DNA of 58,204 nt, counting the filler, from Circinaria calcarea (Eukaryota), in assembly GCA_051942165.1 (NCBI GenBank). It is 6 parts of 6 records of this genome, joined end to end, with 100 filler letters (N's around TTAATTAATTAA, not from the genome) between each part and the next. Parts side by side here need not be neighbours in the genome. Positions count along the whole stretch, not along the records: positions 19,459 to 29,075 come from JAVECS010000904.1; 5 more parts are not named here. One strand, 5' to 3'. Position numbers and translations under genes: made by a program. Positions 9,630 to 56,899 of the stretch are shown here, piece after piece. How positions within the stretch are numbered: position 1 is the stretch's first letter; every line of letters starts with the position of its first letter. The notes under the pieces are model-generated. The model was not told the DNA's origin. It made no database searches and worked only from the letters and a program-made list of their open reading frames with translations.

Positions 9630-9729
9630 NNNNNNNNNNNNNNNNNNNNNNNNNNNNNNNNNNNNNNNNNNNNTTAATTAATTAANNNNNNNNNNNNNNN
9701 NNNNNNNNNNNNNNNNNNNNNNNNNNNNN
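9630..9729. other. Assembly gap with artificial TTAATTAATTAA linker
   Basis: 100-nt N-TTAATTAATTAA-N block, with stops in all six frames. Confidence 0.97.
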
Positions 9730-10627: not shown

Positions 10628-12868
10628 TTATCTTACACACCATTGCTGATTTACAGCTATACTTTGCGCAGTAATCCAGATGAAGTCTTTTCCAGCTAAT
10701 AACTCAGAGGGACGAGGTCTGATATAGCCTCTTTGTAAATACTGACAGAATAGAGTTCCTTCAGTTTCCCTGAGAACTGCAACGAGCACAACTTCGGACC
10801 TGTCAGAAGTATTTATAATAATTGCTGGTCGGTCTGTCTGGAAAACGAGATTTGCAAATTTCTCCATGCCTTGTGATTGCTTATACACGGCTTGTGCGGC
10901 GACTTCAGTGGCGTAACTCGTATGATAATCACTTTCTCCTAAATATGGCCAAAGGTGTTGAACTTGCCGGTTGTTTTCGGGGTCCTCGAAATAGATTCCA
11001 CGGCTTGCATCGGCCAAATGTTTTTCGGTAGATAGGTAAAACCCAGGAAATCTTACATGGAGACCTTGGCTATTGTGAATCGCAGGGGGAGCGTGTCTGC
11101 GTCTGAGTACAGTTTGACTTTTGCATGAGCTTAGAAAGGATATGGGTGCCCATCGGTAGCCATCTATTTCCAAACTCCGTCCCTTATGGAATAAGATCTC
11201 AGATGGAATTTCTTCTAGAAAAGAATAAAAAGCTTGCATTCTCTGCTCCGCTGACGACAGATCGACCAATCTCTTCACGTTTCCACCTAGAATAGATAAC
11301 AAGCACAAAGGCTCATCCATTAGGCGGCTTGTTTTACGGTATTCTAATGAGCTGGTAAGTCTGCCCAAGTTTGTGGTCATGTTTTCGGATTGCGGTATGC
11401 GGGAGAACAAGGCTCCAAGAGCTTTCTCGGAGTGGGACAGGGTCAGAATATCAGACCTCAGAAGACTATTAAAAGCAATAGGCCCATCCCGAAACTGGAG
11501 GTACAACTTCTCGCAATTGGGTCTGTTGTCGGTCAATACTGCTTCCTGTAATGTCCACAGTCTTCGCATCCAGCTGCAACAGAGGATGCGTGTTGCAAGC
11601 TCAGTGCGGCTAGCTGTACTCAAGGCCTGCTGGAGTTCCAAGTCTAGGACCAGCACTTGGTCTGCCTTCTTGTATGTCTCTGCCATCTTGGCAATAGCCA
11701 ACCTCCTATACTTCTTGAGATTCTTTGCAACTGGAACGCATAAGGTGTCGATCCAAATCATTGGCTGAGCACACCGACCAGTTGACTGAGATAGTTTGGC
11801 GACCAAATCAGTCAAGTGTTGTATCTGACAGCGTGGAAGAGAATTGGTCTTGACATTGCCTAGGCCATGCCCCCAGACATGTGAGAACGCTGTATATGCT
11901 GATGATTCAACAACTTCCAGCATGAGGCGTCCATCTTCAATGTTACAAGATGTTAATGATATCACTGGTATCTTGTCACCATTTTCGAGAATGGATGAAA
12001 CTTTCTGATCATCAACAAATACAAATGGGCAGCTAGAGAGATCCAAGCACTCTCGCGTATGCTTGGTCTTATAAGTTTGGTAGTCGACTTGATATGCGTT
12101 GCAGTCTTGTGAGGTGCATCCTGAATGGAGCTGTTCATTTGACAAACTCGGCCGCTTGAGTAAACTTGCAATGTATAAGCCAGTAGTGTCAACTAGATCC
12201 TCTAGCATAGCCACTTCGTTCAAGCACCATCCCGCTCTGTTGAAGTAATGCTTGAGTGGGTTCTGTCGGCGAAACAGCCCTACTGAAATTAGAGGAGATG
12301 ATAATAATTGCCGTAGCGGGAAGCGCCAGATCAGCATTGCTGCATTTTTCAATGTCTCTGCCATTATCAATATAGATAATAGTACCTCCATAGGTAAGGT
12401 CACCTTCCACTTTTCAGGCAATACAGAATCATGAAAATGCATAAGAAATGAATCAACTCTGATTAGTATCGCAGCTACGTGAGCCTGCTTTTCTCGGCGA
12501 CTAGTCAAGTCCTGACCTCGCTCACGATTGGCCCAGTTGTTTAGATATTGCCGCAAACGGGAAGTTGTAACAATGCGATGGTTCCCAGAGTCTCTCACAA
12601 AATCTTTAAATTCAATCTCCACCTCAGATATCCGAAACACCTCGTGTAGCATTCCAAAGAAAAGCCATGCCTGCACGAACGCTGTGATTTTCTCAGGAGA
12701 CTTATGTTCTTCATCACTCCGTACTAGTCCTCGGAGCTTGTCAATCTTCCAGCCGTTGCGCTGCGGAAAATCTAAAAAACCTCCCCGGTCATAATCATTG
12801 GTTTCGCAGAGACAGGGGACTTCCAATGGCGGGAAGGCTGAGGCTTCGATTTTTGGTAGGTGATCCAT
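10628..12868 (-). CDS. HET-domain (heterokaryon incompatibility) protein
   Basis: Intronless ORF from ATG 12868 (MDHLPK). Motifs QAWLFFGMLHE, GWC, YTAFSHVWGHGLGN, IWIDTLCVP, MAETYKKADQVLVLD, WMRRLWTLQEA, GYRWAPISFL; ends QQWCVR. Confidence 0.9.
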   Translation of the reverse strand: MDHLPKIEASAFPPLEVPCLCETNDYDRGGFLDFPQRNGWKIDKLRGLVRSDEEHKSPEKITAFVQAWLFFGMLHEVFRISEVEIEFKDFVRDSGNHRIVTTSRLRQYLNNWANRERGQDLTSRREKQAHVAAILIRVDSFLMHFHDSVLPEKWKVTLPMEVLLSILIMAETLKNAAMLIWRFPLRQLLSSPLISVGLFRRQNPLKHYFNRAGWCLNEVAMLEDLVDTTGLYIASLLKRPSLSNEQLHSGCTSQDCNAYQVDYQTYKTKHTRECLDLSSCPFVFVDDQKVSSILENGDKIPVISLTSCNIEDGRLMLEVVESSAYTAFSHVWGHGLGNVKTNSLPRCQIQHLTDLVAKLSQSTGRCAQPMIWIDTLCVPVAKNLKKYRRLAIAKMAETYKKADQVLVLDLELQQALSTASRTELATRILCCSWMRRLWTLQEAVLTDNRPNCEKLYLQFRDGPIAFNSLLRSDILTLSHSEKALGALFSRIPQSENMTTNLGRLTSSLEYRKTSRLMDEPLCLLSILGGNVKRLVDLSSAEQRMQAFYSFLEEIPSEILFHKGRSLEIDGYRWAPISFLSSCKSQTVLRRRHAPPAIHNSQGLHVRFPGFYLSTEKHLADASRGIYFEDPENNRQVQHLWPYLGESDYHTSYATEVAAQAVYKQSQGMEKFANLVFQTDRPAIIINTSDRSEVVLVAVLRETEGTLFCQYLQRGYIRPRPSELLAGKDFIWITAQSIAVNQQWCVR

Positions 12869-12994
12869 GACGTTACTGATAAGTGCACGCCTGGATTCAT
12901 AAAGTAAGTATTCTGCTATAGAAAAACTATAATAGAATAAGTGACTGCTGCGTATATGTGGTATGGAGTAAAGTGCGAAGAACTGAGAGAACGA

Positions 12995-13050
12995 TCGGGG
13001 GATCGCTGAGATATGGAGTGAAAAGCGCGCCCGATTAGCGCTGTTTTCCC
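12995..13050. repeat. 56-bp non-coding element, copy 1 (upstream of the HET gene)
   Basis: 48/56 identical, ungapped, to 17413-17468. Confidence 0.8.
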
Positions 13051-13502
13051 GCTTCCTTCTGTAATAATTATCGTCCATTGATTGGTATATTCCTAGGCAG
13101 CACGAGGCTGAGCCAGGCAACAGTACTAACAAACAATAAAGATGAGCAGCTATAGCTGGGCACGAGGCAGCCAATTCAGGTTCCATGCACTCCGCCCCTG
13201 AAAACCGGCTGTGCCGCAAGCGACGAAAACAAGCGAATATCTCGGGCATCCCCTCGAATTTCTTCCACAATACTCCATAGGTCCTACATACATATACTTG
13301 CTGCCATATTGTGCGTTTACTGTTTGAAACGTAGTACTCCCTGGTAATACTCCTCTCTTCTTAGATTTAAGAGTACTTACGATGCCTCTAGTGTTAATTG
13401 GGAATACCATAGCGCGAAGCCTTCTCGGGGTGGGGAAATCCCAGCACGCATCCAAACTTCTCTATATCCATAGCTCTTGCAGGTCGATGACCATTTGGAG
13501 AA

Positions 13503-16883: not shown

Positions 16884-17412
16884 ATGCATTAAGAACTCAG
16901 AACTACCCCATTATAAGGAGAAGGAGCCAATGGGTCTGGATAGTTTTGTGGGTGACTTGGAAGGTATAGAAAAGGTGCGGGGGTAGGGTTGGCTAGTACC
17001 GGGGGAAAAGGAAGAGGACGATTGAATACAAAATCTTTTATCTTCGAGATAAACAGTCTTTTATTTTTCGAAACTACACGCAAACTAGATGGTATTTGAT
17101 TTTGTTCTCTTTTCCACTAAATCTCTAGTCTCCAATCTTCCTATAACGGAAATTACAATGAAGATATAACACAACCCATAATTGGCGCTTTCCTTTCGTC
17201 GGTAATTTTCTCATTGATCGTTCATTTTTGGAAACCAACCTCCAAACCGTTTCCCTTTTTAAAAAAAGTGTATTACAGGGAGAACGCTACGTTTTCAATA
17301 GGCTGCACGGTGTAACCGGAACGTATATATGGATGAAGGCTGCTGAAACACTACGGTAATAATATGGTAATACTATGGAATACTCTGTGTGTGTGTGGAG
17401 AGAGGAGAATGC

Positions 17413-17468
17413 TCGGGGGATTGCTGAGATATGGAGCGAAAGGCGCGCCCAATTGCCGCTGTCTCCCC
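17413..17468. repeat. 56-bp non-coding element, copy 2
   Basis: 48/56 identical, ungapped, to 12995-13050, same orientation. Confidence 0.8.
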
Positions 17469-17893
17469 ACCATCTTCTCCATGCGCTCCAATCATAACAT
17501 TCGCTTGTTTTTGGCTGGTTGGGCAACCACGATTTTCAAGAACCTCCGGACCCTTGCCAGCGTGCCCTGTAAGTGTGCCAGTCTAGTGATCAATGCCCGC
17601 TATCTCTGCAATGATAAGAGCCCACAGTAGAAATTATACTGTCGATATATACTATCCTGAGTCGCTCCGTGCTAGTCCGGGGAGGCAATTAACCTGGCAT
17701 ATCACCTACGCTTTAAGCAGAAAGAGCGTCGCTAATCTACTAGAGCTTTGGAGGATATACTACTTGGCACGAGAAATGTTTGTTCTGATCTTACTTACTT
17801 AAAGCCTTCACGAGTACTTAATCTATCGGCTATATCTTCACTTTCTATTCTCAGTCTGTAAGGAAACCATTTTCCGGCTTTCTCATCTTATCC

Positions 17894-19358
17894 TTATCCA
17901 ACGCACCATTTCTGCTTGTTATTTCTACTCTCTGCTCGTGTTTCAATAGACCAATCAAGCCGATTCGGTATATACACGCCGCCTTGGATTGCCTCCGTCG
18001 CTATCTTCTCTAGTCGAATGAGCTCCTGTCTTTCGTTCAGATCTTTTACACCTTCGTTGTCCAGGCTCTCGATCTTGATATTGCATATATATGTACAATG
18101 CAAAACCCCATTCTTTTCTCCTTGTATCGTGACAAGTATGCCATTGCTGCCAATTCTTTGCCAAGCTCTGTTAGGTTGAAACACTAGATCTTCCAAGATG
18201 ACGCCCATTCGCGCGTTTGGAAGGCTGTATTCAATCTGCGATAGTACTGGCACTCTCCGATAATTCAATATATACCAGCGGTCTTCTCTAATATCGAGAA
18301 AAAAGAAATAGGTCATCGCGGGGGTCCTAGCACAGAATAAAACAAATCCAGGCCCCTCTACTGATAGCCCAGTCTCGTCCCGGATGCATGGTGTCCTGTC
18401 AGTAAAATTTCTTACGGGTGTTGTAAAAGTTTCTCGCATCGAGGCAGGAGCCCATCGATAGCCCTTTTCCCGCATCCTTGCTCCATCATGAAAGAGTAAG
18501 CCCCGTGGTATGATTCTTTGCAGTGAAAGGAAAGCCTTCATCCTATCCTGTACAGGGACGTCAAACAGCGTCTTGGTATTTAAACCTAGTATTGTTGCGA
18601 GGCAGATCATATCATCACCCGCTCTACTTGTCGAGCGCCACGCAAAATGGCTCCACGCGAAAATTACTCTCCCTACGTCCCTTGAGTCGGCAACTTGCTT
18701 AAGGCCCATGTAGAAGATTGACGCTTCTAAATAGACCATGCGAAATGCTGAGAGATCAAAGGACAACTTTTCAAGCGCGATCACCGCTTCTCGAACGTCA
18801 AGGGCACCGTCTGCGAATTGAACATATAGGCTCTTGGCGAGAACTGCTTCTTGTAGCGTCCAAACCTATGATATGTGAGAGATGGTCTAGGCAAAGCGCT
18901 GATAACTTACTCGTCTTAACCAGTTCGAGCAAGATATTCGCATTAGAGATTCCTCGTGTGTAAAGCGGGCCACGTTCTGGATTTCAGCATCTAAGACGAG
19001 TACTTTATGTGCTATTTTATAGGTTTCGTACATCCGAGAAATCGCCAACTTTCTGTACTGTTTCTCCAGAGGTACACATAACGTATCCATCCAAAAGAGA
19101 ACGGGCCAGTCTGTCACGAAGTTTAAACTGCGAAGTACGTACCTCCAATTCAGCATGTCTGCAACATTAATTGCTTTTGGCAGACTCGCAATCATGGTTT
19201 GGAGTTTATGAAGCTGGCATATAGGTAAAGAATTGTTCGTCACATTGCCTAAACCATCAGACCAAACATGGGATATAGCAGTATATTGAATGCCAGCACG
19301 ATACGCAACAGCATCGACAAGAAGATGTTCCGAATGATCCGAAATAGATAGGGATATC
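17894..19358 (-). CDS. Second HET-domain protein (5' truncated by the gap), paralog of 10628-12868
   Basis: Motifs YTAISHVWSDGLGN, FWMDTLCVP, MYETYKIAHKVLVLD and NWLRR|VWTLQEA across the intron at ~18866-18910; GYRWAP; ends QKWCVG. Confidence 0.88.
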
Positions 19359-19458
19359 NNNNNNNNNNNNNNNNNNNNNNNNNNNNNNNNNNNNNNNNNN
19401 NNTTAATTAATTAANNNNNNNNNNNNNNNNNNNNNNNNNNNNNNNNNNNNNNNNNNNN
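19359..19458. other. Assembly gap with linker
   Basis: N-TTAATTAATTAA-N. Confidence 0.97.
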
Positions 19459-19577
19459 GTATATTATTTGCTAAATAATTTTTATTTTAATAATAAAGTT
19501 TTTATATAAATATAGTTTTTATTAAAATATATTTTTTATTACTATTTAATTACGATTTAAAATATATAATCGATATT

Positions 19578-19968
19578 ATATTTTTTAAAAACCTTTTTAT
19601 CGTATTGCTAATTTTCGCTATTGTTATCTCGGCCGCAGTAATTCCTAGTGAGAATGAACACCCCACAAGAACTACTCGAGATAAGACTGATCTTTGTACC
19701 AATCGGTATCGCGCCGCGTGGGGAGCTAGCGGCCGACGGTCATCAGAGTTATATTAAACGCGGCGAATAAAAAGTAAATGGCCACCAAAGCTACATCAAA
19801 CATGGGGAACTAAAGGCCGACGGTTATCAAAGTTATATCAAGCGTGGCGAACAAGAAATAAACGGCCACCAAAGCTACATCAAACGTGGGGAATTAGAGG
19901 CCGACGGTCATTAGAGTTACATTAAGAGGGGATAGCTGGAATTCGATGGGCACCAAAGTTGTATCTGA
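19578..19968 (+). pseudogene. Kex2-processed repeat protein (KEP/RiPP-precursor-like), RIP-inactivated
   Basis: ATA (inferred former ATG)-FFKNLFIVLLIFAIVISAAVIP signal peptide; intron 19648-19702 (GTGAGA...CTGAT...CAA, acceptor mutated); then IGIAPR and six 42-bp units GE[L/Q]xx[D/N]GHQSYI separated by KR. Stops at 19768, 19912 and 19933; terminal TGA at 19966-19968. Confidence 0.8.
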
Positions 19969-20042
19969 GAACGCGGAAGTCAGCTGAGACGAAAGTAAAA
20001 TAATGGCGCAGAGTTAGATAATTCGATAGTAGTGGAAAATAA

Positions 20043-20717
20043 CGGAAATATGCAATTTCATACCCCACAACTTTAAAATATCGGAATTATGCAATTTTAA
20101 CCCCCAAAAGTATGAAATGTGCAATTTCATACCCCAAGTTGCAATTTCATACCCCACCCCCAAATTCTAGTGATTAATCTTCTGTTAGTGCAAGGTGGCT
20201 ATTATTAAGATCACTACGGAAGGTTATTGTCACTGCCGTAAAGACCCACTGTCGCAGATATCACTGTCGCCAGTGGCATTGCGATAATAGCATTGCGATA
20301 GTGGCATTGCGACACGCTGGCATTGCGATATAAATGCGAGAGCGACACAGTGCGACAGCGACCCACTGAAAACCGCGATAGTGAACTTAGCTTATTAACC
20401 TCGGGCCGGGTTCTTAGGCTAATACTAAGAAGAGCTTCGTCGGGAATAAGCAAATCATAGCTACTGTTCAATAGCTTTCTACTCCCAAAAATTTTGAGTG
20501 GAATGATTCCTAACTTTTGGGCGGGAACCCCTCGTTTAACACTACAAACGATTGAGCACCTTCCTCCGCGAGTTAGAAAACTACCCCACAATACCCTCCT
20601 GATAGTGGTGTGTTCTTCGGGGTACCCCCTGATTTTTTGGGGTGGGGTATGAAATTGCGACTTAGGGTATGGAATTGCATATTTCAAACTTGTGGGGTAT
20701 GAAATTGCATATTTCCG
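20043..20717. mobile_element. Non-autonomous TIR DNA transposon (MITE/Mutator-like), ~675 bp
   Basis: Left end CGGAAATATGCAATTTCATACCCCACAA... is the reverse complement of the right end ...TTGTGGGGTATGAAATTGCATATTTCCG. TIRs are built of TGCAATTTCATACCCC subrepeats. AATAA flanks both sides. No transposase. Confidence 0.8.
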
Positions 20718-21155
20718 AATAACTGGCCATCCAAATCTTTGAAAAGATGCAGAGGCTTGGACTTCTGGTTAGGCAGTTGATGACGGCTAGATTCGTAGTA
20801 TAGATGGGGACGATAATGATCAAGTCCGAAAGGGTTGAAGGAGTTACAGACATGAAGATAACCAGGAATGCCGTAGACTTGGTTCTAGCTGTTGCGCAAA
20901 AGGAATAATGAATTTATGGGACTGCGAGGATTGAAATGTTTTGCCATGAAATGTAAATGTGGTTTTATTGGACAAATACTCTCGTATAGCTAACTAGGCC
21001 GTCTCCCCCTTCTTCTCTTTGACTGAACCTTGATAGTAGTTCATTCCGCAAGCGTGACCTTTGGAAAGGGTTTTGGCAAGGGGTTTTGCAAGGCCTCGGA
21101 GTCGCATCCAGGGGACGGACCATGAAGGGATATAAACGAGAGATTAATCATCTAG

Positions 21156-24100
21156 CTAACAAGGTTCTCCCCACACATTCCGATCATAAAGAGCCCAGTC
21201 ATGATTTGGAAAATCGTAGCCAATTGCCCCAGTGTTCATGGTAGCATTTGAGACGGAAGAATTTTTAGGGGGGAAGGTATCCGGAAATGCCAGCGCATGA
21301 GAAGTGGCAGAGGGACCTGGCGATGTCCAATTACCTGAGAATGTATGACTGGCAGTCTCAAACTGTCTCGGTGGGACCACGTAATCATCTTGCAACTGTA
21401 AAGAGCTGATGAAGGTGTCGAAAGACGGAAGTTGCTGGCTGGAGTCCCATGGGTTTGTTGTGATTGGTGCTGACCGCCGCAGTGTGTCGTCCCAGTTGAG
21501 AGGTGAGCTGCTGGCGCTGACGTCGTTCGAGCTCATTACTTTGCCTTGAGTGCCTTCCGTCTTTCTGAGAACTCCCTCTGCGTCGTCCGACTCATCGTCC
21601 CCTAGCTCCTCGTCCCCTTGTTCTTCATCACTCTCTAGCTCATTACTCTCTAGCTCATCACTCTCTAACTCTTCATCATCTAGCTCCCCACCCTCTGAAT
21701 CTTGCTTTGGAACCCAGTAGATATTCCGGACCTTAGATATCCCGAATGTCTCTTCTTCTGAAAGCCACAAGACGTGATATTCGTAGGTGTTAATCATAGG
21801 GCCCAACGTGCTATAAAATCCCCGACGAAACTCTTCTGCATCGAATCCACACGCGGTCAAGGCTGACTCCCATGAACGCGGCGTCGATGGACTATCTGGC
21901 CATCTTCCACGCCATCTATATGCCACCTCCGACACAGTCCGACCGCTGTTATCCTTAGCATGCACATCTGCGCCTGCCTTTATTAAGTCGATCAATGTTT
22001 CGATGTCACCAACATAATTAGATAGGATATAGTGAAGACATGTCTCTTCGGTCATTAAGTTTCGAGCATTGATGTTTGTATTATGGCTAATTAGGAGATC
22101 CCAAAATCGAAAATTTGGATTCCCTCTGTGGAACTTTACTGCAGACAGGAAAGCAGTATCTCCACGGTCGTTTACGGCGTCGAGGTCAATGAATTCACGG
22201 CCCTCACCTAGAAGCAGGCGCGAGATAGCCTAGTCATGTCTGTTACTCAAACCTCGAGATAAGTTGAAACCCGATTTACCTCAGGTTCCCCACTTATTGC
22301 ACCCCACCAGGGGTTAGCGCCGAATAATTGGTCTTCGGCTGTCGGGTCTGCCCCACTTTCAAGAAGCAAACGCCGACAAGCGAGACTTGCTTCAAGCTCT
22401 TGTGCTTTAGTGTGGGACATACTTGATTCCCAGCTGCGAAGTAGTGAACTTGAAGTACAAGACATAAGTATCAGGCATATGAAAGATAGGTCCCTGCAAA
22501 TACAGACTTACACATCAAGATCATCATAGATGAAACCCCGCTCAGCACCGTTCACGTTAGCACCCTGCTCAATCAGATACTTACATATCTTGGGTGCTGG
22601 ATAAGCGCAAGCATACTGTCAGAGTCAGAATGGGTTACGGTTCTCCAAATTGGGGCCGACTACACACCTTCAGTAACGAACGGCCTTCGGGGTCACGATC
22701 TGTATACTTGGCGGCACCTTCTGCGAAGAGCCTCAAGAGATCGTCCAGAGCGTCTTTCTTTACTAAAGAGAACACTTCTGAATCCTCAGGTACGATCGCT
22801 GAGAAGAAGATCGTAGGCTTTCGGAGGTAGGAACCCTGGTAAGTTATTTTCTGCTGAAATGAGAGGGACATCATTGAGTTGCGATAATCGCTTCTGGATA
22901 GGAACGCTATAGTTCCTTCAAAAACTTCTATCAACTCATCGTGCTCGCCATTCTCATGGTCTTTGTTGCCACGGTCTAGGAGTTTTCTACTGTTCGTTTG
23001 TACTGTGAGAGTTCCCATGCTGGTATCGTACCTTCGATACATTTCTTCATGTTCATAGCATTTTCAGGGCGCTTTTGTTCGACGATGACTGTCTAGAGCA
23101 AAGGTTAGCGACAATGATGCCTTAAGATAAGATGGTATAGACCTGGCTTGTTGAGTGCTAGACACTGAGAGGCTATCAAGGATCCTCGTATTCTCCTGAT
23201 ACGGCGCTTATGCTCTAGGTCTTCCGTCTCGTCGCGTTCTGTGAGTTCCTCTACTTTTCTTTTCCTTGCGTCTGCTGAGGCTCTTTGGGCTATAGCTTTC
23301 ATAGATATTGCATTCAACAGTTGCTCCACATCATCTATGATAGATTGAGCCTCCACGGAGAATACTGTTGACTGCTTCTCCGATGCAAGATTGAAAAGGC
23401 GATCTAGGCTAGCATGGAGGCCATTTGAGTCATTATCTGAGATGGTTTCATTATGTTGTTCCTCCATCTCCACATCAATTGCGGTATCGTGAACTTGTTG
23501 CAGCTGACCAGACAACCCCTTAGTGCAGGTTCGCTTTGTGAACTGATGTTGGAGCTGCTGAGCTAGGCTCTTTAAAACGTCTTTTTGCTCTAACGAGGCG
23601 TCCCTGAGACTCTTCAAATCGTGTCCTATGTTATCGACAAGCTGGCACACGTTCGTTTCCAGAGATGATGAAGTTGCTCCAATGCCGCGTAGTGTGCTTT
23701 GCATCTGATCCAACATGCTCTTTGAGCTTGCCAGCTCATTACTACTTTGCAAGCTGAGCTGCATTTGCTGGTTCATTAGGTTATCAACGCTATGGGACTG
23801 AGTACGTAATTGCGCTTTAGATTCCTCCGAAGCTTGCAATAACGATTTCGTAACAGTATCTCTGAGGTCTCCCAAGTCGTGTACATGAGAGACACCTAAT
23901 TTACTAGTAGGCCACTGATATTTAGCGCTGACCCTTCTTCGACTATATCACTTACGTCTGGAGTATACCAAGCTGGAATCCTAACAACCCAACATGGCCT
24001 TGCAAGACATCTCGCATCTGGATCACCTCATTCCTTCGTAAGGTTATTTTGAAGCCCGTCCAAGCCTTGCTCAACTTATTGTCGAATGGTAATATCCGTA

Positions 24101-24365
24101 CTTTCCCAACCTTTATCTCAAATTTCCTTAGGTCCTTGGCGCAGTTTTGAACTAAGACTGGTAGGTCGGCATCACTCTCGAAGCCAGTTCCCAGTTTTAT
24201 TAGCTGCTGAAGGAGACTCTCTAAACTATTCAAGGTCTGCAGTGTATGCTGGACGGCGTCTTGTCCATCTTTCACGTCGGAGACCACTCGGTAAATTACC
24301 CTGATCGATTGTAAAGATAGTCCCAGAACTGTAAGAACGCTCGCAGCACTGCTTACGCCGTCCAT
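21156..24365 (-). CDS. Multi-exon HeLo-like N-terminal domain + ankyrin-repeat protein with acidic tail
   Basis: MDGVSSAASVLTVLGLSLQSIRVIYRVVSDVKDG N-terminus; ankyrin-type segments YLIEQGANVN, LLLESGADPTAED and LIKAGADVHAKDNSGRT; ELES[D/N] acidic repeats; GT-AG introns between the ORF pieces. Confidence 0.75.
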
Positions 24366-25599
24366 GTCGTCTTAAGCACCGGGCAACTAGGATAGCGAGG
24401 AGCTGTAGCCTTATGTAGTATACACAAAGATCAAAGAGCAGGGAAACACGTAGAGCAGACTTATCAATTGCTTGATCACCAGATCTCAACGAAGGCTAAC
24501 ACTCAACAATGCAAACCAGAGTGAAAGAGACAGAAGGCCAAATCGAAATACAAAAGATGTGGCAGAGGGTTTCAGGGCTGCAAAGTAAGGCTGCAAAGCT
24601 GCAGCTAGACGAGGCTGTGCCATCACATGTGCAGGATGGTGGCTTATAGCTGCACGAAATTCGTTGATCTTCACAGCCCCGTTCAAGGCTCTGATTTCCG
24701 TAAGTCATAGTGGCAACAGTAACAATTGGGGTAGGCAGTGCGAGTCACGCTATGCGGCTCTACCAGTTGGGTTTCTGCCCACAGTGCCTTTCTGCACTTC
24801 GCCGCGCATTTAATTCCTCGATTCGGCGACAATACCCCTAACGCCTAAAAGGCTCTAGTGCTGCCTTTATCAATCAATAAACTCTGAAATTAAAACCCTT
24901 CGACACTCCATTTCTACTGCGTAACTAACTTAGAATACCATTTTCCTCTCCCTCAAACCCTTCAATATCCGTTGATCAGTATAAAGACCCAGGCCTAGGA
25001 CATCCTTGGCGGCGTCGAATTCGAATGATCGGACCACCTGAACCCAAAAGTCTTCCTACCCATAACATTCCTCACAAAGCTCCTCTCTACCATTCTGCTA
25101 CTGGCATACCAGTATGGGTTCATCGATAGGCTTGACATGGAAATGGAGAAGCTATGATAGCGATCTCCTGGGAAATTGGAGGATAAGGGAATGAATACGA
25201 GGAAGTAAGTGTAATGGATCATATCTGTTGAATTAGCCGTGGTATTGGACAGACTTGGGAGCTGTAGGTCGAAGCGGAGATAACGGTGCCGATGGGGAGA
25301 GAGTGTTGGAGAGCTGAAGTGGGTAGTGAGCTAAAGCGAATATTGAGCACGTTACGGGAAACACAAACGTGATACGGTGATGCACATGTTTTAGTGATTG
25401 CGATAATACTCTTCTGGATCATCAGCCACTATTGAGTTCTAGATACACTTGAGCATGAGAACTCTAGGCTCCAGAATCAATGTTCAAAACTGAGTTGGTT
25501 CGACTGCCTCATTACATGTTCCGATATCTAGTCTACTCTAGAGAGTTCCCATGTTTCCTCAATGTAAAATACATGCAACTAATAGGACGTAAGACCGTC

Positions 25600-27839
25600 C
25601 TACAGCGTAGCACTCGTGACTAAGTTCCGAAGGATCTTATGCCCATCCTCCAGCTTCCCGATCCTGTCTTTCAAGAACTCGCGGTGTCTCTTGGCCGATG
25701 CTGGTTCGGATGCAATCGCCTCCGACTCAACGTCTGACAAGTTAGCAATGGCGACAGGTGAAAAGATCTTTTCGATGCCGCGGACGATGTGTCGTTCGAT
25801 AACTTGGGTTGTGATATTTTGTACGAACGTCTTTTGACAGACCTGGGTAAAAAGAAGCTGGTTCAGTATCATTTACCGGTTAGGGATAGGGGTTGTCTGA
25901 CCTTGTAGATGGAGAACAGGCAGTCAAGTGCCTCCTCGCAACTGTGCTTTTCCATGTCCGGATCGACACGCTGGCGATACTCCTCTGCAGCTTGGGCAAC
26001 GCCGATTATTGAGGAGGTGTGGTCATCGTCGGAAAATTCCTCGCCTGTGCAGCTTCTCCCCTCAATAGTTTCCGCAAGAGACTTCCTCCCTCTTGCTTGA
26101 CGCCGCTTTTTGATTGTGTCGGTGTAATAGTGATTGTAGTTGATGGGATAACTCTTGACATCCTCCATGATCAACTCAAGTTCCCGTATTGAAGCATCCT
26201 TCCTGATCTTCAAAGTATCTTGGATCTGAGACGACCATAACCGAGAGTACATATCTTTGGGGCATTTTTCACGAAGTAAGTTTTCAAGGAACTGACTGCA
26301 TACCTGCGATACCCTCTCCATGTGGTCCGCGGCTATTTGGTACCATCTAAAAGATTGCTCCCAGAAGAGTTCACCAATCAGGAGTGGGTTAAAGTTGCCA
26401 GCGAGCTCTTTCCCGCGGGTTCTCATAAGAGCTTGGTTAACCCACTGAAGCGCTTGTGAGTTGGATAGTTTCGTTGGTTTCCCAGATTCTACAATGGGCG
26501 GTGAAGAGATCCACTCGGGCTTTTCTGACATTTCAAAGTGATACTTGTGGCCATTCGTACGAAGGTTGTTGGAAAACTCGGTATTCATGAACTGGACGAC
26601 GGCGCGAAGCCTACGGACTGAGGCTGGAGAGGTAGGCGAGAAGACCTTGTCGGTGACACTGTTAAAGTAATCTCCTTCGTAGTATCCCTGGGCTGCGGCT
26701 TTACAAACCTCATAATAGTCAAGGCTAAGCTGCGACAGATAAGATTTGCACTCTTGTGGAGTTGCTCGACAATCGCCCATCTCCCCTAGTTGGCCTTTGT
26801 AGCCCACTAATGCTGCATCAAGATCTTCTCTTAGCTTTGGGAGTTCCAATTTAACATGGCAGAAAAGCAGCTGGCTCAGGCGACCTCGTAAAGACTCGAT
26901 TCCAACATAGTACTTGGGAAGAATTTTGAAAGTGGACTTTCGAAAGTAATTCGCCTCGGAGTCGTTGCGTTCACTAAACGTCATCGAGCCTTCCTCGAAG
27001 CTACGGTTCTTGAGCACATGCCATCCTAATTTAAAGAAGATGTCCTGGTTACGTGCCAAGTTCAAAAAAGCTGTCTCCATTCCCGATCCTGACGGCAGTC
27101 GATCGGGTTTTGTGATGATGCCAAGAGTCCGTTCGCCCTTTGGATCAACTTTCCTTACCTTGGTCAATATTCCTTGATTAGCATAATCGTTGGCAGCTGA
27201 GACAACTGCCAGACATATTGTGCGAGGCTGTGAGATGTAGTGATCGGTGATTTCTGCTACAAGTTCGACATCTGCCTTCGTCACGCCTTTTGATTCGGTC
27301 TGGATGAGCCCAGGAAGATCAACTACTGTAAGCTGTGGCCTCAAAGGGCCTTCGATCTCGATGCTAAGCACGTCCTTGGCAAAAGCATGGGAATTCGCAC
27401 TTGGAGTCGAGCTGTTGTCTATACCCATGAGAACCATAGCCTTGTCCATAAGGCCGGGGAGCTCGTCAAGATTCGTGATGGATTCTTTGAAGGCTTTGAT
27501 GGACTCCTGCTCTTGACTATTGCGTTCTGTGTCTGGGATCACCCTGATTGTAAGTGAATTGGTCGTGGCACGGCGCAGGATGATCTCCGTGGCAAACCGG
27601 GTGCAGAGATTGTCATTCCTTGGAAAGGGGATTTCTGTAAGCGCCTCAAGGACAGAACTCTTGCCAGCCGATTGGTCTCCGCAAACGACAAGCTGTGGAA
27701 GTGATAAGATGCTCTCCAGGCCACATTTGCGAATCTGGGCAATCGTGTCAAGAACTAGCCGTTGCTCATTGGTTTGAAGATCCTCAAGAGAAGAAGTGAT
27801 GTCAAGCTCCACGGCAGGAGCATCGCCTGAAGAATCCAT
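25600..27839 (-). CDS. Mx-like dynamin-family GTPase
   Basis: G1 LPQLVVCGDQSAGKSSVLE, G2 CTRFATE, G3 DLPG, G4 TKPD. Intron ~25846-25901 precedes a GED-like C-terminal exon (KTFVQNITTQVIERHIV). Confidence 0.92.
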
Positions 27840-29075
27840 GGTGTCGACTAAGGTATGAACATGTGAGTAGAAAATAGTAGAACGTTCTAGAGTTCTTTAC
27901 CTTTAGCTGATGTCAATTATCGAGATTTGGTAACCTAGTTGACGGAACAGCAACGGAGAGGTATTTGCTAAGGTGAAGTGAATCGTATCCAATTTCGTGG
28001 TTACGTGGAGACAGCGGATAAGAGCGAAGAAGTATCGAAAGTAAATAGGTTTTATCCACTAACTAGGCTGAGTTACCGTGGCAAACAATACCGAGTTGAT
28101 AAAAAGAGAATCCACAGGCAGCAACAAACATTCGCGTCGGATAGATGTCGGCTACCGGCCTCAGCCTTGCAAACGGAAGCACAGCCTCATTCTCTTATTT
28201 TCACCGCATGTCTCGGCAGTCCGTGACTCAAAGCTGCAATCCTGAGAGCCCCAATGAAAACCAATAGAATACGCCAATGTCTTGCATCCTCATAGGCTGA
28301 AAGCGGAAGACGGGAACTCGCATGCTAGGCTCTCGATTAGTTCTTCCATGACGTGGGAAGCCGAAAGCCTTGTAACTCTGAGCTGGAAGCAAAGAAACAG
28401 GACCGGGAGGCGGGAGGACGAGGAAGTAGGAAGACAAAGGAGAACAATAGAGGATATACATCTACGGAAATTTACCAGAATCTTCTCAAAGAGTGACCGT
28501 GCCTCTTTTGCCACCGGTCACACCTAAAGAATGAGGAAATCCAGAGTTGTAAGGGATTGCGAGTATCCCCATTGTTCAGCCACTACGGAAGTCAGTTCGC
28601 AGGCCTTTTTTGGCAACATTAGTCAGGCGCCACAAGCTTCCCGAACTATCTCGGATTCCGTTATGTTATAGACTGCAGGTATGAAAGGCAACAGGAAGCA
28701 TGGATAGGACTGCGGAACAAGACGGCCAATTCGGTCGGCATTGTGGTTTTGAAATCTTTCATGGCATGAGTCCAGGTGGTTCGGTGGAGCACACAGTAGT
28801 GATTGATAGAGCTCGAAACCATTCAGGGTCGTTCGTATGCTACTTCTGAACGGGATTCGGTAATGCAGTAATCGACTTGTCAGTGACTCGTGAGGCTTAA
28901 TGCAGAGGGTCAAGATTGATTACAAAATGTTATTGTGCTTCCCATCAGATCAAATGCTTAGATCTATTTGGTACGTCAGTCAAGGTTAAGGTCACTGCTG
29001 GCCAACACGTACCTAAAATACGCCCTCAAGTATACAACCTGCCAGGCCCCCAGTCCGACCAACATTCCCATCGTC

Positions 29076-29175
29076 NNNNNNNNNNNNNNNNNNNNNNNNN
29101 NNNNNNNNNNNNNNNNNNNTTAATTAATTAANNNNNNNNNNNNNNNNNNNNNNNNNNNNNNNNNNNNNNNNNNNN
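29076..29175. other. Assembly gap with linker
   Basis: N-TTAATTAATTAA-N. Confidence 0.97.
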
Positions 29176-38790: not shown

Positions 38791-38890
38791 NNNNNNNNNN
38801 NNNNNNNNNNNNNNNNNNNNNNNNNNNNNNNNNNTTAATTAATTAANNNNNNNNNNNNNNNNNNNNNNNNNNNNNNNNNNNNNNNNNNNN
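38791..38890. other. Assembly gap with linker
   Basis: N-TTAATTAATTAA-N. Confidence 0.97.
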
Positions 38891-48502: not shown

Positions 48503-48602
48503 NNNNNNNNNNNNNNNNNNNNNNNNNNNNNNNNNNNNNNNNNNNNTTAATTAATTAANNNNNNNNNNNNNNNNNNNNNNNNNNNNNNNNNNNNNNNNNN
48601 NN
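48503..48602. other. Assembly gap with linker
   Basis: N-TTAATTAATTAA-N. Confidence 0.97.
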
Positions 48603-50793: not shown

Positions 50794-53700
50794 TCAAATT
50801 TGCAGTGCCCGAATAACCGCCTCTTGGAGGTACCTCTCGAGCCGTCCTTCTTCGTCCATCATACGCACGTTAGCACCCATTTGCACTAGTAGCTCTGCTA
50901 CAGCTGCGTGGCCGTTAGAGGCTGCTTTTTGTAAGGCCGTCTCTCCATTAAAACCAACTGCTTCAATGTTCGCCCCCTTTTCGACTAGTAGCCATACTAC
51001 TTTTTCGTGGCCTTTTGCTGCTGCTATATGCAAAGGTGTGCGCTTATGACCATCAACTGCTTCAGTTTTCGCCCCCTTTTCCACCAGCAGCCGTACTACT
51101 TTTTCGTGGCCTTTTGCTGCTGCTATATGCAAAGGTGTGCGCTTATGACCATCAACTGCTTCAATATTCGCCCCCTTTTCCACCAGCAGCCATACAGTAG
51201 CTTCTTGATCAAAGATTGCTGCTCTATGTAAGGGTGTGTTCTTATGAACATCGACTGCTTCAATATTGGCTCCATGTTCCAATAGTAACCGTGCGATGGC
51301 TTTATGGCCGCACGATGCTAATTCGTGTAAGGGCGTGCTCTCCTTGTCATCAAGTGGTTCAACATTGGCTCCATGTTCCAATAGTAACCGTACAATGGTT
51401 TCATGGCCGCCCGCTGATGCGATATAAAGGGATGTGCGTTTATAAACACCAACTGCTTCAAGGTTCGCCCCCTTTTCCACTAGGAGCTGTACAACGTCTT
51501 CGTGGCCACTCGCTGCTGCTGTATGCAAAGGTGTGCTCTTATGATCATCAACTGCTTCAATATCCGCCTCTTTTTGAACCAGCAGCCGTACCACAGCTTC
51601 ATGGCCGAAGAGTGCTGCTTTATGTAAGGGTGTGCTCTCATCAATATAAACTGCTTCAACGTTCGCTCCCTTTTCCAATAATAGCTGTACAACGTCTTCG
51701 TGGCCTCTCGCTGCTGCTGTATGCAAAGGTGTGCTCTTATGAACACCAACTGCTTCAATGTTCGCTCCCTTTTCCAATAGTAGCTGTACAACGTCTTCGT
51801 GGCCACTCGCTGCTGCTGTATGCAAAGGTGTGCTCTTATGACCATCGACTGCTTCAATGTTTGCCCCTTTTTGGATTAGCAGCCGTACAATAGCTTCATG
51901 GCCGTTCCTTGCTGCTTTATGTAAGGGTGTGCTCTCATCTATATCAACTGCTTCAATGTTCGCTCCTTTTTGGAGTAGCAGCCATACAACCGCTTCATGG
52001 CCGTTCGCTGCTGCTTTATCTAAGGCCGTGACTCCCCCGTGAGGATCTACTGCTTCAATCTTGGCTCCACGTCTCAAGAGGAGCTGTACGGTTGCTGCTT
52101 CACCATTGGCTGCTGCTCCATAAAGGCAAGCATCTTGAAGTAGCTGCACTACGTTGATGTACTCGTTTAAAGCTGCTAGCACTAGCGTTGTGTTTCTATT
52201 TCCATCACGAGCATCAATTAAAGCACCTTTCTTAAGTAGTAGCTTTATCGCCGATTCGTGCCCGTTCAAAACAGCTAGATCAAGCGCTGTTTCTCCTTCC
52301 ACATTCTCTGAGTCCAGGGAAGCCGTTCTTTCAATTAGCAACTGTGTTGTTGAAGCATGTTCATTGGAGCCTGCGATATGTAAAGATTGATTTTCCAATG
52401 CTATTTTCGCGTTAAGATCGAGGTTGGGTACCTGATTAATCAGGTACTGTAGTGTAGTTGTGTGGCCATGCTTAGCAGCCCAGAAAATTATTTCGGCTGT
52501 CGGTACAGGCCCCTCGAGTCCCCATTTGTGTAGTAGCTGAACCATTGCCACATGGTTGTTCTTCATTGCTTTTATTAAGGCTATGCCTCCATCCCTTATC
52601 CGTAGACCGTGGAGACTGCTCAAGGGCATGTGCTCTAACATGTATTGTATTACCACATTATGGCCATTCTTGGCTGCTTTTGATAATAGCTCTGAATCTC
52701 CCAGAAGAGACTTATCAGCAGCTATCAAAAGTTTTATGACTCGCAGATGACCATGACTAAATGCACTGGATATAGCTTCAGGGTTGTGATCCTTAGCATA
52801 GCGATAATAGGCCGGCAGAGGTAGCCCAGTTGTTGGTCTCAGGAGTAAAGCTAGAAGAGGTTCATGACCTGCTTCGACAGCCCAAAGAAAGAGTGTCATG
52901 TATGGTAGGGATGGTGGTCCCAGGTTGGCGCCCCAGCTTCGAAAATTAAATGTCATTGTCTTATTCAGAGCGAGATGTTTGAACATCAACCACATGCCTA
53001 CTTTCGGGGACTCCGGATAAGACAAGCCGGACGTATGCCAAGTCCAATGCCTAATGGCATAACTGAGGAAAGTGTATTTGCTGTCTAACACCGGTGTAGG
53101 TATTTTCTTTTTGGCTTTGGACACGAGTACTGAATAGTCAAGGTCAGGTAAGCTCTGCTTATCGTCTCCACGCCATAGCCAGTGCAGTGCGTCATAGAGT
53201 CGTGTTCCAGCCCCCAACACGGTAGCAATCTGTCCTACCCCCGTCGGTGCAAGGATCCCGGTTGGTTGCAGTACGCGATTAGGCGGCAACGCTGTAATCT
53301 GAGTCTCAAAGTCTGAGAAAGAAAGATAGGTCACACAGACACCTGCAGCATAGAGGTCAACCTCTGAAAGTTCAAAACGGAAGTCAGGCGATGAGCCAGT
53401 CTGTTGTTCCGAGAGCAGGTATTGTTGAACGCTGTGATGGATAAAGTGAACAGCGCCATCTTCAATGTCCAAAACTACTAAATTTCCGCAAGATTGTATA
53501 AGGTGTTGCCCATTAGGATCTGTCGATATCTTTCCAATATCCCACGTCTCATCCCCGGGATCAACTGCAATGGCCTCTTTCAGTTCGCCAATCAACAAGG
53601 GGCGCCTCGCGCAGAGAACCCATTTCAGAATCCTTTGTACCATTTTTATGTTTCGTGAATTTTTCTGCCCTATCTTCGTCAATATCCGCTGATATGTTGC

Positions 53701-55512
53701 TATTAAACCTTCCGGTAGATGTCGAAGGGTTTCCCGAATTCCGGCATCTGATTGCGTTGCATCACATATGTCCTCTAATTGGAGGAATACCCACAGAAAC
53801 CTAGCAGTGTGAGTGGAAATTATAGCAGATGCTCATTCGAAAGGGATACAAACATTCCATGTGCCTTAGCAACCAGTTCCGAGACTATTTCTTGTTTCAG
53901 CGCAGGATCGCGAAGTACCAAATCTCCCTTGTCTATCTTTGAATTAACAGTTTCTTCGACAAATATAGTGATATCTCCTGTAAGCTGTGACTCGTGTATA
54001 TTTACTTGAGGATAGTTTCCCAAAGTCGTTGAGATATGTGTGTCTTTGCGACTTGAGATGTAGATCTTGACAGCCACTCGATCTGATGCCATCAGATATG
54101 TCACCATGGACAGGACCTCGCCTTGCACCTCTCGCCCGCATTCATCCAGGCCGTCGATCACCAAAAATGCGCCCTGATAATTTGAGACCAGGATCGAGCA
54201 TAGGATTTCAACCAGCTCATCTTTGTCAGGGACTTTGGTACCGAATCCGTAAGCTTCACGCAAAAGAGAGCCTACTGCATCTGGTATGGTAGGGCGCCTT
54301 GAAAGTAACTGCTTTATGACTGTTCCCAAGATAGTTGAGGTTTCCAGTGTCTTCTTGTCTGAATAATCACAATAATGAAAGGTAACCGCTTCCTCGTGAT
54401 GAACCTCGTTCAACAGAGTATCAATTACGTTCGAACTAAGGGCATAGTACATAGTTAAATTCGGGAAATCTCGTAAAATTGGTTCCGCAGACTTACGCCA
54501 GAATTGTTTTTCCAGATCCAGCTGGTATCAAGTACTTATTAGCAATGGCCATGACATGGAATATTCATTGGGTGGAAATACGTATCCCATAGCAGCATAA
54601 GCATGCAGATCCCCGACTATCTCTCCAAAATCGAAATTCAGCCGTTTCCGTCAGCCAAGCCCCAGTCTGTTGATGTCTAAGCCTCCTCATCTTCTGATGC
54701 TTTATCTCATACTGAACAGATGATAACATAGATAGAAATTGAATCCGATCGTCCTCTTTCACACGTATAGATCAGCAAAGACGCTCTGTTTAATATTACG
54801 AGCGATATCTGAGCAAACCTTTTCTCTCCTTCTCCAACTGTGCCCTATTCCAGACCTCGAGGTCTCGAGCTTCTTTCGCTTCTATCATATGTGCTATGCC
54901 TGCTTCTTTTTCGACGTTTTTCCGATGTTCCCGGAAATTGTCCATGACCTTCCCAAATTGCTGGTTGAAGGGCTTCCATAATAGCTTGAAATGAATACTG
55001 AAAGTTGATGTAGATGGTCGTTTCCCTTTCCGAAAGACAGCCTTGGCGTCTGTACAGAACTCCAAGATATCTACGTAGACTTTTGAAAGGGCCTGCACCA
55101 AGCGTTCGTGGCTGGCAAACAGCTTTTCATATACCCTAAACTGCGGGAGAACATCGCCAATCCGTACGAACATATCCACGAGCCTCTCAAAGTACTTGTG
55201 AAACTCGCTCGCAAGGTGGAGAACGACCCTCAAACTACCCCATAGTGGAACTAAGACAAGGGACGACACATTCGCATAGACATCAAGTGCTTTACCATAT
55301 TGATCGATGGCAGCAACGAGAGGCTGGAGTTTGGTCCCTAAACGACGGGTTGTGCTTTGAGCTTGATGCGCTTTCTGCATCGCGCTGGCGCTGTAAAAGA
55401 CATTCTCCAACGAGGCATTGTCAAATATCTCTCGCTCGCTCTCGGTAAGGTCGTCGGTGTATCGGCGACGAGCGCGAGCCCAAGCATCTTCAGAAATCAC
55501 AAGGCTGGCCAT
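50794..55512 (-). CDS. Fungal NLR-like protein: helical N-terminal domain, NACHT, winged helix, ankyrin repeats
   Basis: Spliced P-loop YGIP|GSGKTILA, Walker B FLVIDGLDEC, KAHGMF|LWV, ARRPLLIGELKEAIA, VHFIHHSVQQYL, FLSYAIRHW and more than 12 ankyrin repeats. Confidence 0.92.
50870..52120 (-). repeat. Tandem 99-bp ankyrin repeats with high internal conservation
   Basis: About 12 units of TPLHxAAxxGHExVVxLLxEKGANIEAV, some nearly identical at DNA level. Confidence 0.92.
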
Positions 55513-56899
55513 TGCGGGAAAGCACAACGAGTAACAGTACCACGGAAATTGGAGAGGCTTGGAAATAAGAGGATCGTAGCCTGGAGGCGTAATCCATGTA
55601 TATGGGAGAGCTCATAAACATGAGGATGCGGTCACAGATGGGGCTGTGCGAAGTCCGCCTCGGGGTTTGCCCCGAGACTGCACCATGCCGGCAGTGCAGC
55701 GACAGTATAGATCCGACTTTGATTGGAGTAGCCTGCGCCGAAGTGGTGGAGTCCACGGTGTACGTATCATTGAGCTGCACGCTGGTCAGGCAGTTCGCCA
55801 CTCAAGCATTAGCGTAAAAGCAGCTAGTGGGAAAAACCCCCTCCACACCTCGGTGGTCCGGAGTCGGGAACACTTTGCAGCGCGGTAAAAGAGAGATTGG
55901 TGACTATGCGTATCTACAGTATATTCAAGGCAAGCTGACCCTTTCCAACTGGGTCGTACGAATGGCAGTCACACAGCTACCTAAGTATGGTGAGCTCTGA
56001 TTGGCTACTATGTCTTAACTGAGCTCGGCCAGTCAACGCAGATCAGGCAGGACCATTTTGAATTGATGGTTTATATGACCACTATCAAGCTAGTAAGGTA
56101 TTCACAGTGGAAGAAGCTTCTCTCATATGACGTTGATCTTCCTTATCTTTTAGTGCTAGAAGCTGTTACTACAACGGGCTATAACAGGGTCGAAATGGAA
56201 ATAGATACCAAGCAGAAGCATGCTCCCAACTCCAAACCCAAAGCCAAAGCAGAAATTCAGACTCGAGCACTCCAGGGAACTAATCCTACTAAACGCCGGA
56301 GAAATTCAACTTGAACTCCCGCCCATTCTCACCAGGATTTTGGCGTCTGGCTGCCCAGGGCTACTCAGAACAGTGTCAAACGAGGAAAGAGAGCAACCCT
56401 TAAGATTCTTCCTGATAGCTTTCCTGAGAGCTCCTGCCATTTGTGCCTGGCCTTCCTTCTTAGGTTGAAAAGATCGAAGCACCGAGCCATCAAGGATTCC
56501 CCGCCGTTGGAATAAAGGCCGGAATCTCGGTCAGCGGTTCTCAGGGAAATGGAGAGTTGCCGGCGTTGGTAAAGGGGTTGAAACTGACAAACCAACTGTT
56601 GACTCGCTGTGTGAAAGTATCATCACTGAGAGCGAAGATGATAGTTACCAACCTACCTCGAACATGCCCTCACTCTATTCACCTACCTCCGTTCAGGATT
56701 CTCCGTAAACCATGAACTTTTCACGGCGAACACCATGCATTCTACCAGCTCCAGCAGAATAGATGCGGTCACTTTGCGTTTGCACCACGGCTGATAGCAA
56801 CTAGTGCAACATGTTTATTCCTTGCCTTGATCTTTGTTTTCTTATTCGAAGTTGACCTCCGCAGTGCGCGTTCAGGCGTACGTACGGCGCCCGACGCCT

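Follow-up and report, generated by a model that had tools for sequence, protein, structure and literature searches.

A decayed gene, probably for a Kex2-processed repeat protein with a GHQSYI core, at a contig edge of Circinaria calcarea

The window, which is the whole 58,204-nucleotide stretch of Circinaria calcarea DNA analysed here, contains on its plus strand a tandem array of six 42-bp units (positions 19717-19971, five good and one degenerate), encoding in a single frame the motif GExxx[DN]GHQSYI-KR. The copy in the window is probably a pseudogene, derived from a small gene whose product was a Kex2-processed repeat protein (KEP) of a type not described before. The basis for this reading is observed, and includes the repeat structure, past purifying selection on the peptide, the lesions, and relatives that are intact. 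Fungal pheromones, toxins such as ustiloxins, and many other peptides derive from KEPs. The locus is composed of the following features:

19459..19577 (no strand): contig start, AT-rich (8% GC), with RIP-like dinucleotide profile and no ATG
19578..19646 (+): signal-peptide-like hydrophobic stretch IFFKNLFIVLLIFAIVISAAVIP, in the frame from 19578, starting with ATA, not ATG
19647..19719 (+): linker or pro-region, where a +1 frame change is needed; Pro-Arg directly before unit 1
19720..19761 (+): unit 1, GELAADGHQSYI-KR, intact; 13 of 14 residues identical to unit 1 of the relative P0032
19762..19803 (+): unit 2, GE*KVNGHQSYI-KH; TAA at 19768-19770, CAA in unit 4 (CpA>TpA); KH replaces KR
19804..19845 (+): unit 3, GELKADGYQSYI-KR; Tyr replaces His, as in unit 2 of the Nemania protein
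19846..19887 (+): unit 4, GEQEINGHQSYI-KR, intact
19888..19929 (+): unit 5, GELEADGH*SYI-KR; TAG at 19912-19914, CAG or CAA in the other units (CpA>TpA)
19930..19968 (+): unit 6, G*LEFDGHQSCI*; Cys replaces Tyr
19933-19935 (+): stop in unit 6, TAG, GAG or GAA in the other units; G>T, not RIP-type
19966-19968 (+): end of unit 6, TGA at the KR position, possibly the natural stop

The frame from 19579 reads R-GELAADGHQSYIKR-GE*KVNGHQSYIKH-GELKADGYQSYIKR-GEQEINGHQSYIKR-GELEADGH*SYIKR-G*LEFDGHQSCI*, which matches exactly the six units and the translation given in an earlier preliminary description of this DNA. The region was said there to be missing from the ORF track, and no ORF of at least 60 aa lies over it. 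Tandem Repeats Finder reports the array at 19717-19926 with period 84 (2.5 copies, 83% matches, score 304) and with period 42 (4.9 copies, 62% matches), and a second repeat search recovered the same array family. A degenerate DNA pattern for G-H-Q-S-Y-I has six matches in the 58-kb window, all within the array; shuffling gives an expectation of 0.53, and none of 100 shuffles had six.

The array is organised as three A-B dimers of 84 bp each. A-type and B-type units encode G-H-Q-S-Y-I by different synonymous codons, GGT CAT CAR AGT TAY ATT in the odd units and GGC CAC CAA AGC TAC ATC in the even units. Private changes that can be polarised are concentrated in the third dimer, units 5 and 6 (19 of 30), unit 6 being the most degenerate.

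KEPs have been defined by a SignalP-positive ER signal and at least three tandem repeats of at least 8 aa between KR, KK, RK or RR sites, none exceeding 100 aa (PMC7329392). If each stop is taken as X, the array contains four KR sites, which bound segments of 12, 26, 12, and 12 residues, and it has the three or more tandem repeats of sufficient length between Kex2 sites.

The variation among units is that of a coding sequence. All 14 columns at codon position 3 vary among the six units, as do nine of 14 at position 1 and six of 14 at position 2, and pairwise differences at positions 3, 1, and 2 number 122, 62, and 40, respectively. In units 1-5, the nine core codons have a pN/pS ratio (Nei-Gojobori-style) of 0.08 and the five spacer codons one of 0.29; across the array it is 0.08-0.13 in the repeat frame, as opposed to 1.19 and 1.21 when either other frame is read, the ratios being rough due to saturation of synonymous differences and the contrast between frames clear. 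The array frame was formerly coding, and during divergence of the units purifying selection acted on the peptide, chiefly on [DN]GHQSYI-KR. The codon-position bias and pN/pS thus bear out the earlier claim of a former coding sequence with KR-delimited repeats. It is scarcely credible, and largely refuted, that the array is a non-coding minisatellite or a part of a transposable element with an accidental peptide reading. This alternative could draw on the MITE-like inverted repeat beginning 113 bp past the TGA at 19966-19968, and on the location in an AT-rich region without open frame. However, the strong third-position bias and the low pN/pS, seen exclusively in the repeat frame, lead to the rejection of a minisatellite, the same core occurs in open frames of six other 90% clusters, and the arms of the inverted repeat do not include the array.

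Intact homologues with the same core, for which a check had been proposed, exist in other assemblies: the [DN]G[HY]Q[SA]Y repeats stand in open frames in ten proteins, which fall into six 90% clusters. A phmmer search, exhaustive over 1.84 billion representatives (cut-off E<=0.001), returned 41 proteins, and a script run over all of them found the motif in two, P0015 and P0032. Word-based searches provided the further relatives P0002, P0168, P0169, and P0170, whereas P0044-P0047 are members of the P0032 cluster, P0044 being found on 42 contigs. P0015 has four PEPDGHQSYIKR units, and the P0032 group has two, the first of which is the one that differs from window unit 1 in a single residue of 14. 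P0169 is KAI1128410.1, an annotated protein of Nemania abortiva (Xylariales) with a Met-initiated hydrophobic N-terminus and four PEPDGHQAYTAR units of the pattern PEPDG[HY]QAYTAR. The repeats are thus found in a lichen-forming fungus, in environmental assemblies and in a Xylariales genome.

D-G-H-Q-S/A-Y is what stays invariant in the family, while spacer, period (13-20 residues) and delimiter vary. Processing by Kex2 at dibasic sites is not uniform in the family, since the units of the Nemania protein are delimited by Ala-Arg, which is not dibasic, and P0002 has Arg-Pro at one unit boundary. The His-to-Tyr change in window unit 3 may be tolerated variation and not damage, because the same change is present in unit 2 of the Nemania protein. 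Metagenome-derived relatives are ORFs called without recognisable signal peptide, an observation that fits a family whose leader lies on a separate exon. The 44-aa relatives (P0032/P0044) end after ...KRADEV, and the 70-aa forms (P0046/P0002) have Trp there, followed by a conserved Cys-containing tail; the two forms differ through a stop/Trp polymorphism or else because of read-through into an intron.

Several other search hits were rejected. The long phmmer hits P0003-P0010, P0013, and P0014 match only unrelated Pfam families and do not contain the motif, and six of them, inspected residue by residue, have unrelated periodic repeats. In a scan of metagenome contigs, 44 stretches matched the peptide patterns and one, the metagenome locus L001, passed the tblastn check; it was rejected because its only DGHQSY is a chance occurrence in non-repetitive sequence that lacks any tandem repeat.

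Upstream of the array, the hydrophobic stretch IFFKNLFIVLLIFAIVISAAVIP (23 residues) is one frame off the repeats. Its best 15-aa mean hydropathy is 3.34, a value reached in 21 of 2000 simulations matched to the composition of 19459-19716 and in 0 of 2000 matched to that of 19578-19716, and the stretch is unlikely to result from composition alone. There is no ATG on the plus strand from the contig start to 19653, and the ATA at the start of the leader presumably arose from ATG. The ATG at 19654 is in the repeat frame, inside an ORF at 19648-19770, and a start there gives an ORF without signal peptide. The candidate signal peptide, lying in another frame and having no ATG, is the weakest link of the KEP reading. 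The leader that follows an internal Met in CEJ90001.1 (P0011), a KEP-like protein, resembles the window leader by eye, but BLASTP gives no alignment of P0011 to the window leader region.

A phase-1 intron had been proposed between the leader and the repeats, and this proposal is not supported in the form given. Nine GT/GC-AG pairs would restore the frame between them. The only one with a good donor (GTGAGA, 19648) leaves an intron of 22 nt, which was rejected as too short for splicing, and the other eight donors are weak. The frame change is due either to a 1-bp indel or to an intron decayed beyond recognition.

The locus is not an intact gene, having three premature in-frame stops in the array (starting at 19768, 19912, and 19933), the +1 frame change and ATA at the start position. 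The window copy cannot make the protein, because of the three internal stops and because the signal-like stretch has neither an ATG nor the frame of the repeats. A living gene, whose stops, absent ATG and shifted frame would all be errors of the consensus or of the assembly near the poor-quality end of a metagenome-assembled contig, is improbable. The locus does lie 120-510 bp from the contig end, and the annotated protein best matching the contig comes from an assembly labelled as a metagenome-assembled genome. Against such errors, five independent lesions would be needed within approximately 400 bp, two of the stops are of the transition type expected beside a RIP-like stretch, and a 675-aa dynamin-family frame elsewhere on the contig is open and without breaks.

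In RIP-affected DNA, TpA/ApT is raised and (CpA+TpG)/(ApC+GpT) lowered compared with the genome. These indices are 1.08 and 0.20, respectively, for the contig start (19459-19577), 1.08 and 0.63 for 19459-19716, 1.00 and 1.00 for the array, and 0.78 and 1.21 for the remaining contig, so that the contig start has the RIP-type dinucleotide profile relative to the contig remainder. The gradient of the second index (0.20, 1.00, 1.21) fits leakage of RIP from a repeat past the contig edge. The three 84-bp dimers differ by 30 changes that can be polarised, and among these, C>T/G>A changes (10, four of them in CpA/TpG context) show no excess over the reverse transitions T>C/A>G (10). The view that most lesions are RIP-type therefore stands for two of the three internal stops, which are CpA>TpA, and fails for the third, a G>T change, and for the array as a whole with its 10 vs 10 transitions. 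RIP-type damage is local, not global, and RIP is the presumed cause of the lesions. As judged by listing, RIP in lichen-forming fungi is a subject of the literature. What the window copy chiefly illustrates is the decay of a gene next to AT-rich, RIP-like DNA.

A sequence of events can be proposed for the family and for this copy. In intact relatives, an N-terminal signal peptide would most likely direct the precursor into the ER, the Golgi protease Kex2 would cut after every Lys-Arg, and a Kex1-type carboxypeptidase would remove the Lys-Arg. The secreted product would be several copies of a 12-14-residue peptide, each with an N-terminal spacer that is variable and mostly acidic and a C-terminal core, [DN]G[HY]Q[SA]Y(I), that is invariant. 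C>T damage would then have reached the gene in the window, plausibly leaking from the 8%-GC RIP-like stretch at the contig edge.

The surroundings of the locus are delimited by the construction of the window. Five N44-TTAATTAATTAA-N44 linkers split it into pieces of 9629, 9629, 9617, 9615, 9612, and at least 9602 bp, which look like size-sorted contigs joined artificially with a six-frame stop linker. As the pieces are separate contigs, adjacency across linkers is meaningless. The contig of the peptide locus is the 9617-bp piece (19459-29075); the preceding linker ends at 19458, and the true context of the locus is downstream only, approximately 9 kb. The features of this context, and the linkers, are as follows:

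9630-9729, 19359-19458, 29076-29175, 38791-38890, and 48503-48602: linkers
20081-20164 and 20635-20718: arms of a MITE-like inverted repeat (87% complementary, 84 nt, with ATGCAATTTCATACCCC sub-repeats)
21159-24371 (-): ORFs with ankyrin and PigL_N matches, downstream of the array
25872-27896 (-): dynamin-family ORF, 675 aa, open

The left end of the MITE-like element (20081-20718) is ambiguous due to a partial arm copy at approximately 20043-20075; its distance from the end of the peptide array is 113 bp, or 75 bp if the partial copy is included. Inside the element, at 20271-20328, are four tandem 14-bp units (CAGTGGCATTGCGA). The ORFs at 21159-24371 may together make up, as exons, a single STAND/NLR-type gene. 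The dynamin ORF shares 96% identity with KAL9118920.1, a Circinaria calcarea protein (from a metagenome-assembled genome according to NCBI), and its further matches include other lichen-forming and related Pezizomycotina fungi.

Other contigs of the window have features of their own. The preceding contig carries two HET-domain ORFs, 10631-13360 (-) and 17897-19357 (-), the second of which reaches the contig end and was rejected as an upstream neighbour of the peptide locus, being on another contig. The same contig has a 74-nt direct repeat (81%) at 12987-13060 and 17405-17478. At 50797-55611 (-) is an NLR-like gene, in which NPHP3_N and DUF7708 ORFs precede a 1012-aa ORF whose ankyrin repeats correspond to 11 tandem copies of a 99-bp DNA unit.

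The earlier statement that no known core or family matches is upheld by Pfam, by the supplements of KEP surveys and by full-text literature, all of which lack the motif. A Pfam scan of seven family members gave no match above the curated cut-off. Among the conserved KEP motifs given in PMC6339444, [DN]G[HY]Q[SA]Y does not appear, and the motif strings searched do not occur in the supplements of PMC7329392, PMC6339444, and PMC12048977. CEJ90001, Nemania and Circinaria are absent from Table S2 of PMC7329392, which lists accessions and no sequences, and absence of motif strings from it accordingly means little; the table includes eight KEPs of T. hemipterigena, CEJ90001.1 not being among them. 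GHQSYI does not occur in the full-text literature searched, and six shorter variants of it occur in 10 papers, none of them on fungi as judged by listing. A protein language-model search provided leads only, all scores being <=0.86. Relative to the literature searched, the [DN]G[HY]Q[SA]Y repeats appear to be a new KEP type, which is not surprising, as 838 types and 2560 singletons are already listed (PMC7329392).

Repeat-peptide genes of lichen fungi are poorly charted, as judged from a survey of lichen RiPP clusters in which two dikaritin-like clans have no repeated precursor (PMC12048977). Part of this poor charting is that short repeat-peptide genes escape annotation.

KEPs as described in two surveys (Le Marquer et al., 2019, PMC6339444; Umemura, 2020, PMC7329392) resemble the window family in the signal-like leader, in at least three KR-bounded tandem peptides and in the combination of a conserved core with a variable spacer. 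The window copy differs from them in being untranslatable.

Dikaritin precursors of the UstA/PhomA type share with the window family the KR-delimited repeats and the Tyr in the core, as well as secretion, which for the window family is predicted. It is possible, at rather long odds, that the proteins of this family are matured into a post-translationally modified peptide (dikaritin-like or another RiPP, e.g., with a Tyr or His-Tyr cross-link), the window copy being a dead version of such a precursor. The signal-like leader, the KR-delimited repeats and the invariant Tyr-containing core would suit such a precursor. According to PMC7329392, 22% of KEPs overall, and 30.1% of those from Ascomycota, have a DUF3328 gene no more than 15 genes away, which for the Ascomycota lies on average 3.09 genes off, and Tyr is commoner in the repeats of DUF3328-associated KEPs (65.6% vs 38.2%); on account of this frequency and of the Tyr enrichment, the prior for a RiPP is not negligible. 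However, none of the 76 ORFs of the contig 19459-29075 (eight of at least 100 aa and 68 of 50-99 aa) matches DUF3328/UstYa, tyrosinase, P450, methyltransferase, peptidase, or transporter, and no DUF3328/UstYa gene such as accompanies dikaritin precursors is present on the visible side, approximately 9 kb downstream. In addition, the window core Q-S-Y-I-K has Tyr followed directly by Ile and no acidic pair before Tyr, and is not of the EDYxI type found in ustiloxin and phomopsin precursors (PMC6339444). The RiPP status of the family, as put forward in the preliminary description, is unsupported.

A related proposal, and one to be regarded as still more doubtful, is that the [DN]G[HY]Q[SA]Y family might be a new bioactive class of fungal peptides with a chemically special core, the window copy being a RIP-silenced relic. 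The core could be that of a His/Tyr cross-linked RiPP, or that of a copper-binding peptide with Asp-Gly-His (X-X-His) at a free N-terminus, since N-terminal trimming would expose Asp-Gly-His. The one argument for this proposal is the conservation of the core across distant taxa. Occurrence of the core both on a lichen mycobiont contig and in a Xylariales genome suggests a constrained target.

Alpha-type pheromone precursors are, like the products envisaged for the window family, cut by Kex2 into repeated short linear peptides, but they carry the STE13 signature XA or XP and class-typical motifs (PMC6339444). It is very unlikely that the family is a precursor of an alpha-type mating pheromone, and this reading fares worse than that of a RiPP. 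Apart from the same general architecture, what speaks for it is the proximity of P0169 (0.81) and P0015 (0.77) to an MF_alpha-domain cluster in the language-model search, which is a lead only. On the other side, every KR and the one KH in the array are followed by a Gly codon (GE, or G-stop at unit 6), so that Gly-Glu stands in place of XA or XP and no Kex2 site of the window array has the STE13 signature. None of the units contains two conserved Cys or PYGxPxG, the motifs reported for the Pezizomycotina classes in PMC6339444, and there is no MF_alpha Pfam match. Sharing of the core by a Xylariales genome and a lichen-fungus contig would also be unusual conservation for a pheromone.

The probable KEP pseudogene of the window can finally be compared with two annotated proteins. 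CEJ90001.1 of Torrubiella hemipterigena is KEP-like, having 14-aa GEQQTDGFGNPN-KR units and a long N-terminus that is apparently mis-annotated. It has the 14-aa period and the KR-GEQQxDG spacer in common with the window (phmmer E 2.2e-9), but its core is DGFGNPN, and the phmmer score may come from repeat periodicity alone. KAI1128410.1 is like the window in its four repeats with DGHQAY or DGYQAY cores, and like P0015 in the PEP before the core; it differs from the window in its Ala where the window has Ser, in TAR at the place of IKR and in a period of 13 aa, and in that its repeats stand in an open frame of an annotated genome.
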